Shown here piece by piece: positions 25,160 through 58,422 of a DNA stretch of 64,000 nucleotides. Every line of letters starts with the position of its first letter. The stretch's first letter is position 1. The notes under the pieces are model-generated. The model was not told the DNA's origin. It saw nothing but the letters and a program-made list of their open reading frames with translations, and ran no database searches. Source of the stretch: Candidatus Magasanikiibacteriota bacterium (GTDB taxonomy: Bacteria; Patescibacteriota; Patescibacteriia; Magasanikbacterales; UBA922); the NCBI GenBank assembly GCA_014729395.1, contig WJJZ01000010.1:220544-284543 (forward strand), read 5' to 3'. A program made the position numbers and the translations under genes.

Positions 25160-25281
25160 CCAGGAATCCCCGCCCGAGGCGGGTGCGCCTTGGGCGCAGA
25201 ACCTACACTTTGTGCTCTCGGCAGGAATCCCCGCCCGAGGCGGGTGCGCCTTGGGCGCAGAACCTACACTTTGTGCTCTCG
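25160..25281. repeat. Two perfect tandem 61-bp direct repeats abutting the 3' end of tRNA-Arg; each unit = copy of last ~24 nt of tRNA (+trailer) fused to GC-rich hairpins
   Basis: Units 25160-25220 and 25221-25281 identical: CAGGAATCCCCGCCCGAGGCGGGTGCGCCTTGGGCGCAGAACCTACACTTTGTGCTCTCGG; contains GAACCTACA...GCTCTCGGCAGGAATC matching the tRNA T-arm/acceptor; hairpins CCCGCC-CGA-GGCGGG and GCGCC-TTG-GGCGC. Confidence 0.8.
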
Positions 25282-25344
25282 GCAGGAATCGAACCTACAT
25301 TGCCAGTTCCGCAAACTGGTGTCCTATCCGTTGAACGACGAGAG
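25273..25344 (-). tRNA. tRNA-Arg (anticodon GCG)
   Basis: Manual fold: acceptor GCTCTCG/CGAGAGC, D arm GTTC-AACGGATA-GGAC, anticodon arm CCAGT-TTGCGGA-ACTGG, T arm GTAGG-TTCGATT-CCTGC; no encoded CCA. Coordinates +/-2. Confidence 0.65.
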
Positions 25345-25390
25345 CTTCAAAAATCGCCTAAATTATAGCCAAAAAAACAAAATCCGTCAA

Positions 25391-37888: not shown

Positions 37889-38671
37889 TTAAGTTTCTGT
37901 TGTTTCGTATTTTTCCAAAACCTCCCTTACCAATCTTTCATATGCTTTAGCTCCTTTTCCTTTGGGGTCATAATGAAAAATTGATTGACCAAAACTTGGT
38001 GCCTCGGCCAATCTGACTGTTCGAGGTATGACTGTTCTAAATATAGTATCTGGAAAATATCGATAAAGTTCATTCATAACATCTTCTGATAATCTTGTTC
38101 TCTTATCATACATTGTCAGTACTGCACCTAAAATTTTTAACTCCGGCTTAATATGTTGCTGGATCAACGAAATTGTGTTTAAAAGCTGTCCCAAACCTTC
38201 CAATGCATAGTATTCAGCCTGAACCGGTATCATCAACTCATCTGCCGCCACCAAGCTATTTATTGTCAAAAGACCAAGTGAAGGTGGGCAATCTATAATT
38301 ATATAGTCATATGCATGCTTAACTTCTTCCAGTAAATCATGCAATTGAAATTCCCTTCTGTCCATATTTACGAGTTCCACATTTGCACCGGCCAAGTTTG
38401 AGCTACTTGGAGCTATTCTCAAACCTTCATGATCCGTATTTTTGATGATATCATAAAAACGTTTTTGTTTGGCCATTGCCTCATACACACCACTTTCAAG
38501 ATTATCCTTGCTAAAACCAAAACCGCTTGAAGCATTCCCCTGCGGGTCCATGTCTATAAGTAAAACAAATTTTCCCAACTCAGCTAAATAGGCCGCTAAA
38601 TTCATAGCGGTTGTTGTCTTTCCAACACCACCTTTTTGATTTACAATTGTGATAACTTTGGACATAAACAA
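37889..38671 (-). CDS. parA: Chromosome partitioning ATPase ParA/Soj
   Basis: Deviant Walker A KGGVGKTT, 260 aa. Confidence 0.9.
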   Translation of the reverse strand: MFMSKVITIVNQKGGVGKTTTAMNLAAYLAELGKFVLLIDMDPQGNASSGFGFSKDNLESGVYEAMAKQKRFYDIIKNTDHEGLRIAPSSSNLAGANVELVNMDRREFQLHDLLEEVKHAYDYIIIDCPPSLGLLTINSLVAADELMIPVQAEYYALEGLGQLLNTISLIQQHIKPELKILGAVLTMYDKRTRLSEDVMNELYRYFPDTIFRTVIPRTVRLAEAPSFGQSIFHYDPKGKGAKAYERLVREVLEKYETTET

Positions 38672-38689
38672 AAGCTTGAAATACCTGAA

Positions 38690-38790
38690 AAGCTTAAAAG
38701 GCCTGAAAGGCTAGTATCTATTGTTTAGAAGTCTTTCAGGCTTTTCTGGCATTTTAAGCCTTTCTAGCCTTTTATAATTATACTACAAAT
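38690..38790. promoter_or_regulatory. Repeat-rich parAB upstream region (GGCCTGAAAGG / CCTTTCAGGC / GCCTTTCTAGCC palindromic repeats), candidate operator
   Basis: Three interlocking inverted repeats within 90 bp directly upstream of parA start. Confidence 0.35.
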
Positions 38791-38835
38791 TGACATCAGA
38801 CACAATAAAATGTATAATCATTTAGCAGAAATTAA

Positions 38836-39050
38836 GCCCGAGTGGCCTGCCTTCGTTCCGATCTTATCGGAACTTCGGCAAGGCAAGCGGGACTCCGTAA
38901 AGCTCGCTACACTCGCTCTGGGTAAAGCTGGCTCTTATTTTGAGCTACAGTGAATAAAAGACGCTCAATATTTAAAATCAATAAACTAAGCCCGAGTGGC
39001 GGAATTGGTAGACGCGCACGACCTGCCTGCCGGCAGGCAGGCTCAAAATC
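38836..39050 (+). pseudogene. Decayed tRNA-Leu 5'-fragment copies: 11-nt stub (38836-38846) and 33-nt 5' half (38990-39022) interrupted by a 19-nt palindrome (CTGCCTGCCGGCAGGCAGG) before the anticodon loop (CTCAAAATC, 39042-39050)
   Basis: GCCCGAGTGGCGGAATTGGTAGACGCGCACGAC identical to intact tRNA-Leu at 39299; preceded by same 24-nt upstream sequence (AATATTTAAAATCAATAAACTAAG) as the intact gene; region 38847-38960 contains strong hairpins. Confidence 0.6.
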
Positions 39051-39199
39051 AACATTTTATGGTTTACTATGTTTACACAATAAAGAGTAAAATTAAATCA
39101 TATATTTATGTTGGAATTTCAGATAACCCTAATAGACGTATATTGTAGCATAATAAAGGTTATAATAAAACTACTAAGCCCTATAAACCGTTTGTATGT

Positions 39200-39297
39200 A
39201 TACTGTTAGAAAAGTATGATTCCAGAAGAGATGCAAGAGAAAGAGAAAAATATTTAAAGAGCGGCTTTGGAAAAGAATATTTAAAATCAATAAACTA
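39200..39297 (+). pseudogene. Remnant of a small GIY-YIG nuclease gene (C-terminal ...RERExYLKSGFGKEYLKSIN*) ending 1 nt before tRNA-Leu
   Basis: Frame encodes KPFVCILLEKYDSRRDARERENYLKSGFGKEYLKSIN*, matching the conserved C-terminus (REK/YLKSGxGRExLK) and a fragment of the N-terminal YVYIL motif of ~90-aa GIY-YIG proteins; internally deleted; a second decayed copy of the C-terminal codons (DAQYLKSIN*) at 38961-38990. Confidence 0.4.
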
Positions 39298-39298
39298 A

Positions 39299-39380
39299 GC
39301 CCGAGTGGCGGAATTGGTAGACGCGCACGACTCAAAATCGTGTTCCTTCGGGAGTGAGAGTTCGATTCTCTCCTCGGGCA
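39299..39380 (+). tRNA. tRNA-Leu (anticodon CAA)
   Basis: GCCCGAGTGGCGGAATTGGTAGACGCGCACGACTCAAAATCGTGTTCCTTCGGGAGTGAGAGTTCGATTCTCTCCTCGGGCA; long variable arm, anticodon loop CTCAAAA; D-arm nearly identical to E. coli tRNA-Leu. Confidence 0.85.
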
Positions 39381-39388
39381 CAATAATT

Positions 39389-40357
39389 ATGAAACTTTAC
39401 TTCGATATAATTATTATCACCGGAATATTTGCAACTGCCGTACCGGCAATTTTTTTGCTTTATCACCGTTCATTTTCTGAAAATTCACTGGAAAATAAGT
39501 TTAAAAACACATCTTTGATTTTGTCTCTTGTGTTGTTTATTGGTAGCATGGTATTGATCTATGGTAGTTTTTTTGAACCAAAACTTTTGATAACCAACGA
39601 ACAGGAAATTAATATGGAGGGTATAAATAATGAAATAGAAATTATTTTAATAGCTGACCCCCAAGTGGGACCCTATAAACAAGAAAAATATCTTGAAAAA
39701 ATTATCACCAGAATCATGGAATTAAAGCCTGATATCATTCTTATTGCGGGTGATATTGTAAATAATGGTATTCCAAACAAAGACGAAACCGTTTATTTAG
39801 ATCCATTAAAAAAATTGCCACTTATTGCCCCAACTTACGCTGTACACGGCAATCACGAGTATGGTATTGGATCTGAAAACCCGGAAGACAAAAAAGAATC
39901 TTTATCACCTGATGTAAGCCAAACAGTTAAAATTGCAATAGAAAATTTGAGTATAAAATATTTAGAGAATGATTTGGAATTGATTGAAGTAAATTCAGAA
40001 AAATTTTATCTTTTTGGTGGAGATTCTTATTGGGCTCGAAAACTTGATTTCTCTACCTTAAACAATCGCGAAGAGGATATCCCTACTATCGCCTTGATTC
40101 ATAACCAAGCGGCAATCTACGAAGCAACAAAACATAATGTTGACCTGGTATTAAGCGGCCATACCCATGGAGGACAAATTAGATTTCCTTTTGTTGGTCC
40201 ATTGGGCAGAGTTGATGGCAGCACTCCAAATGAATTATATCAAGGTCTACACCAATTCGGCAGCACAACCCTCTTTGTATCCAGTGGAGTCGGCGAAACC
40301 GGTACTCGAGCCAGACTGTTCAACCCTCCGGAAATAGTATTGATAAAAATAAACTAA
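39389..40357 (+). CDS. Membrane-anchored calcineurin-like metallophosphoesterase
   Basis: Motifs GDIVNNG, GNHEY, GHTHGGQ; start refined to MKLYFDI (track ORF start overlaps tRNA-Leu). Confidence 0.75.
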   Translation: MKLYFDIIIITGIFATAVPAIFLLYHRSFSENSLENKFKNTSLILSLVLFIGSMVLIYGSFFEPKLLITNEQEINMEGINNEIEIILIADPQVGPYKQEKYLEKIITRIMELKPDIILIAGDIVNNGIPNKDETVYLDPLKKLPLIAPTYAVHGNHEYGIGSENPEDKKESLSPDVSQTVKIAIENLSIKYLENDLELIEVNSEKFYLFGGDSYWARKLDFSTLNNREEDIPTIALIHNQAAIYEATKHNVDLVLSGHTHGGQIRFPFVGPLGRVDGSTPNELYQGLHQFGSTTLFVSSGVGETGTRARLFNPPEIVLIKIN

Positions 40358-57955: not shown

Positions 57956-58045
57956 TGGCGGAGGAGGTGGGATTCGAACCCACGGAGGACTTGCACCCTC
58001 AACGGTTTTCAAGACCGTCGCCTTCGACCGCTCAGCCACTCCTCC
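57956..58045 (-). tRNA. tRNA-Ser (anticodon TGA), encoded CCA
   Basis: rc: GGAGGAGTGGCTGAGCGGTCGAAGGCGACGGTCTTGAAAACCGTTGAGGGTGCAAGTCCTCCGTGGGTTCGAATCCCACCTCCTCCGCCA. Confidence 0.85.
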
Positions 58046-58422
58046 ATGTTTAGACAAAATGCCTGTTTGTAAATGCTCTTCCAGAGCCAGTCTTCAAATA
58101 CTTCTCAAAATTAAAAGCCGTATATTTATCAGGAAAGCAACAGTAAAAAAAATAATTCTACTGACAACCTATTACGGGTTGATTTTACTTTACCATTTTT
58201 ATGCAACTTCACTCGTTTCTTCAAATTAGAAGTACAGCCTACGTATAAATTATCATTACCACATCGTAATATGTAAACATACCACATAACAAAGAAATAT
58301 TATAAAGCAGATAAAACCCCCCTTCGCTGTCGCTTTCATAAAAAACAAAAAAGCTTTAGAAAAGTATCCCAACGGACCGTGTCCGCCGTAGCCCAGACGA
58401 AGCGACAGCTTCGACGGGCGAA

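Follow-up and report, generated by a model that had tools for sequence, protein, structure and literature searches.

How does a tRNA gene come to lie behind broken copies of its own 5' half, with a nuclease gene between them and a perfect palindrome in the middle of one copy? The question is raised by a Candidatus Magasanikiibacteriota bacterium (assembly GCA_014729395.1, contig WJJZ01000010.1, positions 220,544 to 284,543 of the forward strand), of which we analysed a stretch of 64,000 nucleotides (nt), hereafter the window, numbered from its first letter. The tRNA is tRNA-Leu(CAA), the nuclease is a single-domain protein of the GIY-YIG type, and the palindrome is a 20-bp sequence that we call PAL. 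We find the same combination at loci of several phyla, and empty sites in close relatives. Our best reading is that the window holds a decaying array, two to three generations deep, of a mobile nuclease-plus-palindrome cassette that rides a tRNA transcription unit. Put as a history, we consider it moderately probable that the tRNA-Leu(CAA) gene was invaded at least twice by this very small selfish cassette, or that the cassette was amplified within it, or both. A sequence-only reading of the locus had proposed repeated duplication or homing of a GIY-YIG gene and tRNA-Leu unit, or successive integrations at the tRNA, now decaying. This interpretation was essentially right, being supported by empty and occupied relatives, by tandem arrays in other genomes, and by a nonsense codon in the nuclease gene, and the observation behind it was partly confirmed. 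Beyond it lie three points: PAL is conserved across phyla, the nuclease open reading frame (ORF) is full length, and a short tRNA stub further upstream is the original 5' end of the gene.

The locus is bounded by parA (37889-38671, minus strand) on the left and by a metallophosphoesterase gene (39389-40357) on the right. Along the plus strand it consists of a promoter, a stub of tRNA nt 1-11, what is probably a decayed older unit, tRNA nt 1-32, PAL, tRNA nt 33-41, the nuclease gene, and the live tRNA-Leu(CAA) (39299-39381), identified by ARAGORN and by Rfam (59.8 bits). An exact 56-nt direct repeat (38967-39022 and 39276-39331, at a spacing of 309 nt) comprises the last 23 nt of the nuclease ORF and tRNA nt 1-33. 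Its upstream copy contains the remnant of the last codons of an older nuclease copy (..YLKSIN*, 38967-38989, plus strand), identical to 39276-39298, and the first 14 nt of this remnant match the conserved C-terminal EYLK codons of the homologous gene at more than 15 other loci. Next come a dead tRNA-Leu 5' fragment (nt 1-32, 38990-39021, plus strand), 100% identical to the live gene, and PAL itself (39022-39041), a perfect palindrome of 10+10 complementary positions, CCTGCCTGCC joined to GGCAGGCAGG. PAL is inserted precisely between tRNA nt 32 and 33, with an ambiguity of 1 nt and without target duplication. The tRNA then resumes with nt 33-41 (CTCAAAATC, the anticodon loop plus 2 nt, 39042-39050, plus strand), and its homology stops at 39050, 9 nt past PAL and 8 nt before the ATG of the nuclease gene. 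The window contains this single copy of PAL, 17 nt from the nuclease gene, where none is expected by chance. Much of this had been seen from the letters alone: the call of tRNA-Leu(CAA), the vestigial nuclease codons before the older tRNA fragment, and the interruption of the copy between anticodon stem and loop all stand. The repeat and the perfect palindrome stand too, with corrected lengths, namely 23 rather than 24 nt upstream of the tRNA, a spacing of 309 rather than 310, and 20 rather than 19 nt for the palindrome.

The nuclease gene (39059-39298, plus strand) is a minimal GIY-YIG pseudogene of 79 codons plus a TAA, and the TAA abuts base 1 of tRNA-Leu(CAA) with a gap of 0 nt. The Pfam GIY-YIG domain (PF01541) spans residues 3-72 of 79 (E = 3.8e-17, 62.8 bits for a cut-off of 22.6), as computed with codon 30 read as Q. 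The sole defect of the gene is an in-frame TAG at this codon (39146-39148, Q30*, CAG>TAG), where homologues have Q or E. Since TAG, TGA, and TAA each terminate long ORFs in the window, with TAG terminating eight of them, stop-codon recoding was ruled out and the TAG is a fresh nonsense mutation. Here the sequence-only reading needs revision: it had rightly seen GIY-YIG similarity and a stop codon abutting the tRNA, and had mistaken a full-length ORF with a lone nonsense codon for an internally deleted C-terminus, reading the motif ..RERENYLK.. where the sequence encodes ..REREKYLK... The catalytic-core residues expected of the superfamily (the Tyr of 'GIY', the Tyr of 'YIG', an Arg, a His, and a Glu) are all found. 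Across 29 sequences, residues Y6, Y17, R26/R27, H31, N32, and E63 do not vary, and the window copy has them all, as it keeps all 21 invariant residues of the family. Within the insert of about 460 bp, the nuclease is the only ORF with a family match, and no integrase was found.

The closest proteins, of about 78 aa (amino acids), come from Patescibacteria metagenomes, and the members of the family are 78-79 aa long, so short that the GIY-YIG domain fills the whole protein. A census built from database proteins only gives 2,410 clusters at 50% identity (E <= 1e-10). Several database ORFs are extended at the N-terminus (..AELVDAHDLPAGRQAQN..) by what is the translation of a tRNA-Leu 5' half, PAL, and the anticodon loop; among the top 150 family representatives, sharing less than 50% identity, 24 of the called ORFs read through PAL. 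The best matches of known structure are the UPF0213 proteins EF2693 (1ywl, E = 1e-7) and BH0048 (1zg2, 8e-6), and SLX1 (4e-4). The matches in NCBIfam are weak and sub-threshold, as for TIGR01453 (20 bits, for a cut-off of 56). Plasmids gave no homologue by tblastn at E <= 1e-3, and the family is rare in IMG/VR, with one good match. A second member of the family lies in the window itself (58053-58299, minus strand), where the profile matches in two pieces (E = 1e-7 and 3e-3). An intact small GIY-YIG gene elsewhere had been suggested as worth seeking, and this one is there without being intact: it is frameshifted (MWYVYILRCGNDNLYVGCTSNLKKRVKLHKNGKVKSTRNR.. and ..FEKYLKTGSGRAFTNRHFV*). It stands between two tRNA-Ser genes and ends 5 nt before tRNA-Ser(TGA) (57956-58045), and PAL was not found there.

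The relatives of this bacterium show what the site looks like without the insert. A protein encoded next to the locus has 100% identity to GF349_04085, from a Candidatus Magasanikbacteria metagenome-assembled genome. The gene order RelA-ParB-ParA-[x]-tRNA-Leu-metallophosphoesterase is conserved among syntenic Magasanikbacteria, and the tRNA-Leu is empty in two of our comparison loci (numbered with the prefix L) and occupied in the window, in L005, and in L201-203. In L206, the 154 nt between the flanking genes consist of the promoter, a 16-nt leader, and a tRNA-Leu that is 100% identical to the live tRNA of the window, and L204 has the promoter and the tRNA alone. L201-203 carry a divergent GIY gene of 82 aa followed by a different, foreign tRNA-Leu(CAA), and the 3' half of the ancestral tRNA remains as a fragment with a 60-nt hairpin in the anticodon loop. 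L005 is another occupied version of the site. From these sequences, the site is polymorphic across relatives, and its resident tRNA is replaceable.

The comparison also assigns the oldest parts of the window locus. The promoter (TTGACA-17-TATAAT, 38790-38818, plus strand) matches the sigma-70 consensus at 12/12 positions, and no other strong promoter-like sequence precedes the insert as a whole and the live tRNA. Together with its leader (38787-38835) it is homologous to the sequence preceding tRNA-Leu at the empty sites L204 and L206, and represents the ancestral tRNA-Leu promoter. The stub (GCCCGAGTGGC, tRNA nt 1-11, 38836-38846, plus strand) starts 17 nt after the promoter, which is the native distance. 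Where the empty-site relatives continue as intact tRNA, it breaks into CTGCC.., a palindrome-like sequence. The stub and the CTGCC that follows it had been noticed before, and we find them as the end of an 18-nt copy with 1 mismatch (38829-38846, AAATTAAGCCCGAGTGGC). The stub is thus the original 5' end of the tRNA-Leu gene, still behind its original promoter. Given the empty sites L206 and L204, the segment from 38847 to about 39309 was inserted into the old gene, and the unit as a whole depends on the old tRNA promoter. The insert opens with 120 nt of hairpin-rich filler (38847-38966, plus strand), unique in the window, in which palindrome-like arms CCTGCC...GGCAAGGCAAG enclose a nested hairpin TTCCGAT-CTT-ATCGGAA. 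As DNA, 38836-38966 folds at -24.4 kcal/mol (z = -3.3 relative to shuffles), which agrees with the strong hairpins previously noted at 38847-38960. The filler is probably a decayed or overwritten older unit. As a decayed copy of the nuclease it was rejected, its alignment to the GIY ORF scoring no better than shuffles and no fetched locus matching it.

Is this a local curiosity? We collected 80 genome loci encoding close homologues of the nuclease (366 kb of nuclease loci in all), from many lineages of Patescibacteria, from Bacteroidota and Ignavibacteriota, and from one Nitrospiraceae. An intact tRNA-Leu on the same strand lies within 60 nt of the gene in 70 of the 80 loci, downstream in 47 and upstream in 23. 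Their anticodons are CAA (43), TAA (13), GAG (8), CAG (4), and TAG (2). Related genomes, in which the sequence-only reading had proposed to look, do contain family genes beside tRNA-Leu. PAL, allowing up to 3 mismatches, is found within 150 nt of the gene in 60 of the 80 loci, and on both sides of it in 11. A partial tRNA copy interrupted by PAL mostly lies on the side of the nuclease opposite to the live tRNA. The 80 loci have 88 copies of PAL, 52 of them at 0-120 nt upstream of the nuclease gene and most others in 3' fragments of tRNA-Leu. PAL was considered as an operator in the 5' untranslated region of the nuclease gene, which is unlikely as the 23 loci with a live tRNA upstream have PAL downstream of the gene. 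The distance from the nuclease stop to the tRNA has a median of about 8 nt across loci. More than one copy of the nuclease gene is present in 7 of the 80 loci, and units of the window type form near-identical to perfect tandem arrays in L014 (303-bp unit) and L056 (392-bp unit). The same layout occurs with tRNA-Asn, tRNA-Ser, tRNA-Lys, and tRNA-Arg for more distant members of the family, and once in a viral contig (L241). In a Ferruginibacter metagenome-assembled genome (L062, 2740-3260), three near-full-length tandem copies of tRNA-Leu(GAG) stand beside one intact gene, and each of the three has PAL after nt 14/15, in the D-loop.

The ends of the tRNA copies are coupled to the position of PAL. 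As in the window, PAL is a precise 20-bp insertion without target duplication in other loci, when compared with the adjacent live tRNA. In 5' fragments it is found at tRNA nt 12, 15, 22/23, 32/33, or 39, and in 3' fragments in the T arm or at nt 32/39. Whatever this position, 5' fragments keep their tRNA homology for a median of 11 nt beyond PAL (31 of 34 loci fall at 4-14 nt) and lose it 0-18 nt ahead of the nuclease ATG. The 3' fragments extend to the 3' end of the tRNA, and in 13 of 22 cases their start lies 6-10 nt ahead of PAL. PAL with its flanks occurs on both sides of a unit of GIY gene plus tRNA in L006, and less cleanly in L055 and L005. The class of PAL position tracks the lineage of the nuclease, since protein distances are smaller within than between classes (2/5000 permutations), an association that is confounded by host relatedness.

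The sequence of PAL is itself well conserved. Exact copies account for 212 of 305, a count that is biased by the retrieval of many loci through an exact PAL match, and PAL stays nearly invariant across phyla while the nuclease proteins diverge below 50% identity. Compensatory changes were seen in 5 of the 22 distinct double variants, which is suggestive, as weak evidence, of selection on pairing. The flanks are variable and show no conserved directional element. Being conserved almost to the base across phyla and tied to the nuclease family, PAL is no local accident. In L034 (about 2420-2480) one PAL is nested within another, and in L174 (621-670) two PALs lie 10 nt apart in a single tRNA-Arg fragment; the two cases suggest repeated insertion into the same small target.

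We also searched metagenome contigs starting from the palindrome. The matches listed include 127 exact copies of PAL on at least 120 contigs, and the numbers that follow refer to these matches. A GIY-like ORF lies within 600 nt of 9 of the 127 copies, and the loci are still enriched for such ORFs (11 loci in 680 kb). The GC content of the contigs ranges from 0.29 to 0.71, and the contexts are intergenic hairpins, short tandem repeats, and other tRNAs. PAL was found in 35 viral contigs, mostly with no GIY gene nearby. In its distribution PAL behaves like a very short repeat of the REP (repetitive extragenic palindromic) or NTS type, of which a few copies are nuclease-linked. A location at the apex of a larger hairpin is striking in L097 and L140, and a strict test on 121 solo copies showed no significant enrichment over control positions. 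Many solo PALs of metagenome and viral contigs (L083, L085, L126, L123, L154, L210, L233, and others) lie within tandem arrays whose repeat unit measures 7-9 nt, and one short motif then stands to the left and to the right of the palindrome (..cgtacatcgtaaat PAL cgtacctcgtaaat..). In the viral contig IMGVR_UViG_3300033148_008720 (L234, 2239-2330), PAL forms an extra arm in the variable loop of a tRNA-Met that ARAGORN still calls as a tRNA, and a live tRNA may tolerate it there.

How could such a unit spread? The cassette, of about 300 bp, consists of PAL and a gene for a single-domain GIY-YIG protein of 78-79 aa. It is seated in the tRNA transcription unit, with a dead tRNA piece that bears PAL on one side and a regenerated, intact tRNA on the other. 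Lacking a strong promoter itself and with its stop close to the tRNA, the nuclease gene would most likely be expressed from the tRNA promoter; since the stop codon abuts the tRNA, the messenger RNA may be freed by the RNase P cut at the tRNA 5' end. By analogy with the nuclease SsnA and its NTS repeat, discussed below, the protein would bind the PAL hairpin and cut about 10 nt away, presumably on both sides because a symmetric PAL gives the same hairpin on both strands. The outcome would be a staggered break in a copy of the tRNA gene, whose recombinational repair would duplicate part of the tRNA and leave an intact tRNA on one side of the nuclease gene and the dead fragment with PAL on the other. 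Tandem arrays, or loss of the cassette, could then follow from unequal exchange between the tRNA repeats. The anatomy of the locus, the empty and occupied sites, the recurrence across phyla, the arrays, and the coupling of PAL to the breakpoints are observations; the cleavage specificity, the co-transcription, and the repair route we infer. In the window, the array would be decaying, because the current copy has just been inactivated by the change from CAG to TAG.

Several observations weigh against this scenario. The live tRNA has no visible difference that would protect it, and classical homing, in which the empty allele is cut, therefore fits poorly. GIY-YIG enzymes are hydrolases of DNA with no known joining activity, which leaves the insertion of PAL itself unexplained. 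The dead fragment copies the resident tRNA in most loci, down to lineage-specific bases of the anticodon stem in 8 of 12 loci of the nt-32 class; this speaks for local duplication rather than import, and import is clear in few loci only (L201, L002, L011). The distance between PAL and the tRNA breakpoints could have another cause, for instance if the boundary of the cassette sets the place where PAL lands. For the 120 nt at 38847-38966, similarity was detected neither with the GIY ORF nor with any of the fetched loci. Fragment arrays also occur without a nuclease gene. In L205 (FLOH01000213.1, 2097-2500), one of the syntenic Magasanikbacteria loci, two tandem 5' fragments of tRNA-Leu (nt 1 to about 32) precede an intact tRNA, and the D-loop of each fragment holds a hairpin of 48 nt (CCTGCCCGC..GCGGGCGGG). 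Downstream of tRNA-Arg(GCG) (25273-25345) in the window, the segment 25150-25272 (minus strand) consists of two tandem 61-nt units, each a T-arm and 3'-end fragment of the tRNA whose T-loop holds an inserted double GC-rich hairpin of 30 nt (TGCGCCCAAGGCGCACCCGCCTCGGGCGGG); a different acceptor strand closes the last unit. Finally, 118 of the 127 exact metagenome copies of PAL have no GIY gene or tRNA-Leu within 600 nt. Being mostly solo, PAL has a life of its own, and its link with the nuclease could be indirect.

This last point leads to the rival that we take most seriously while holding it rather unlikely, namely that PAL is an independent REP-like mini-element of 20 bp that accumulates where it is tolerated, the GIY gene merely using tRNA genes as safe and well-expressed landing places and being biochemically unrelated to PAL. 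The excess of solo copies in metagenome and viral contigs, the wide range of GC contents and non-tRNA contexts, and the presence of unrelated GC-rich hairpins in the dead tRNA fragments of L205, L201, L007, and the tRNA-Arg locus of the window all fit it. Such independence is difficult to reconcile with the only PAL of the 64-kb window lying 17 nt from the nuclease gene, with the 366 kb of nuclease loci, where most copies sit in the dead tRNA piece adjoining the gene, and with the enrichment for GIY-like ORFs in the palindrome-first loci. A freely accumulating repeat would also be expected at random positions, and PAL keeps a fixed distance of about 6-14 nt from the end of the tRNA fragment and a position class that correlates with the nuclease lineage. 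It is less likely still that the nuclease is a domesticated host factor, acting in processing or recombination at tRNA genes or in the restriction of incoming single-stranded DNA, as has been proposed for SsnA, with tRNA fragments as by-products. The family is large and well conserved, with its 2,410 clusters and 21 invariant residues, and SsnA has a proposed role in modulating transformation (PMC11893778). A housekeeping gene should not be so patchy among syntenic close relatives, nor should both copies in the window be pseudogenes; tandem arrays and a resident tRNA swapped for a foreign one are rather the marks of a selfish element.

Two simpler accounts of the repeats can be given little credit. 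A purely local event, in which an ordinary tandem duplication took in the resident gene and the 5' half of the tRNA and decay came after, would explain why the 56-nt repeat is 100% identical and why the fragment copies the resident tRNA, and would make the palindrome a chance repair scar. It is very improbable, and in practice already refuted, given that the palindrome does not derive from local sequence, that at least 60 independent genomes, spread over several phyla, share both the 20 bp and the architecture, and that empty sites exist. Most improbable of all is a classical element, either a group I intron that sits in tRNA-Leu together with its homing endonuclease, or an island of the integrase type with a tRNA attachment site. 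The insert is flanked by direct repeats of the tRNA, and tRNA-Leu is a familiar home of group I introns, as tRNA genes are of integrating islands. The intron was rejected since an Rfam scan of 38650-39450 gave the tRNA alone and matched no intron or ribozyme family, whether at the gathering threshold or with E <= 10, and nothing interrupts the live tRNA; the protein also lacks the DNA-binding domain of I-TevI and Seg enzymes. The island was rejected as well: the insert of about 460 bp has no tyrosine or serine recombinase and no ORF beyond the 79-codon nuclease, and the duplicated part of the tRNA is the 5' one, not the 3' one.

Among known systems, the closest in logic to the PAL cassette is that of the Ssn nucleases and the NTS repeat. 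Ssn proteins (family cd10448), such as the 94-aa SsnA of Neisseria meningitidis (Chenal et al. 2025, PMC11893778), are single-domain GIY-YIG nucleases whose own gene is flanked by a hairpin repeat; they bind this repeat and cut single-stranded DNA beside the hairpin (PMC11893778). In both systems the proteins have fewer than 100 aa, and a conserved, GC-rich repeat able to form a hairpin flanks the gene and has many solo copies elsewhere, in a repeat-gene-repeat layout that has been compared to an insertion sequence. The cut next to the hairpin was demonstrated biochemically for Ssn, whereas for the PAL cassette it is suggested by breakpoints 6-14 nt from PAL. The repeats also differ. The one of Ssn (NTS/SRM) is directional, with the consensus HGTCWYN(0-2)YYVSBRHN(0-5)WNVSBRGN(0-2)RNCYNB (PMC11893778), and PAL is a 20-mer of perfect symmetry whose flanks hold nothing conserved and directional. 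PAL and its flanks do not match the SRM consensus, and the four SRM matches in the 366 kb of loci all lie more than 300 nt from the gene. Furthermore, the PAL cassette is nested in tRNA transcription units with partial duplication of the tRNA, and tRNA is not mentioned in PMC11893778. The hosts of Ssn are Pseudomonadati, those of the PAL cassette mainly Patescibacteria, Bacteroidota, and Ignavibacteriota.

Other systems share some of these features. SegB of phage T4, a free-standing GIY-YIG homing endonuclease of the tRNA gene cluster, also has its gene among tRNA genes, spreads non-reciprocally together with flanking tRNA sequence, and shows presence/absence polymorphism (PMC2330249). Seg proteins, which start at about 200 aa, possess a distinct DNA-binding domain, and the target that they recognise in the empty allele is long and asymmetric. 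The PAL cassette differs in its bare catalytic domain, in the accompanying palindrome, and in the duplication of part of the tRNA; the window protein ends after the catalytic domain, without the C-terminal DNA-binding domain of the I-TevI and Seg architecture. REP sequences and bacterial interspersed mosaic elements (BIME), with their RAYT genes (IS200/IS605-like, Y1), combine a short palindromic hairpin repeat, one or a few repeat-flanked master genes, and many solo copies, and cleavage occurs at a fixed short distance from the foot of the hairpin. The PAL cassette has these traits in common with them, presumably including the cleavage, and differs by using a GIY-YIG hydrolase instead of a HUH tyrosine transposase, by a shorter and perfectly symmetric repeat, and by its tie to tRNA. 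No HUH Y1 transposase was found next to PAL, and no gene besides the nuclease is consistently present in the loci. Phages and islands integrate at tRNA genes, where a copied part of the tRNA keeps the gene functional and gives direct tRNA repeats. The PAL cassette resembles them in the insertion into a tRNA gene, the partial copy, and the direct repeats. It differs in its size of about 300 bp without an integrase, in duplicating the 5' part of the tRNA (the 3' part in Bacteroidota), and in breakpoints that are apparently set by the palindrome rather than by a recombinase core site. The UPF0213 and SLX1-type URI-domain proteins have the same small URI-type GIY-YIG core, with no reported association with a palindrome or tRNA, and SLX1 works with SLX4 on branched DNA.

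Just ahead of the tRNA promoter, in the upstream region of parA, lies a large imperfect palindrome of AAAAGCTT/AAAGGC-type repeats (38670-38772, 43-nt arms, 72% complementary). It is the source of spurious weak miRNA-like Rfam hits, and may be a ParA/ParB operator or a parS-like site.

The PAL sequence and the arrangement of GIY-YIG gene, tRNA, and palindrome were not found in the searchable literature, which omits many subscription papers. The tRNA-nested nuclease/palindrome cassette is widespread and seems to be undescribed. We suggest, as a tentative possibility, that PAL and the 78-aa nuclease represent a previously unrecognised class of bacterial mobile element, at about 300 bp possibly the smallest autonomous one. 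If so, a minimal hydrolase guided by its own 20-bp hairpin would break structured RNA genes about 10 nt away, and the element would survive since repair regenerates, or the cassette supplies, an intact tRNA, a break-and-rescue strategy. Lone PALs would then be non-autonomous derivatives, present as solo insertions in bacteria and phages of 29-71% GC, including a live tRNA (L234). It would also mean that a cassette of about 300 bp and a 20-bp palindrome are hidden in the tRNA genes of uncultivated small-genome bacteria, of Bacteroidota, and of Ignavibacteriota, where annotation pipelines show merely a 'GIY-YIG family protein' with odd N-terminal extensions. The partial tRNA-Leu copies of these genomes, and the ORFs that start in tRNA fragments, would be accounted for. 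The 78-aa protein and the 20-mer would form a concrete enzyme-site pair that extends the Ssn hairpin idea to a new specificity, with possible use in tools acting on single-stranded DNA. More broadly, the cassette would be an example of an element that sits inside an essential RNA gene without killing it.

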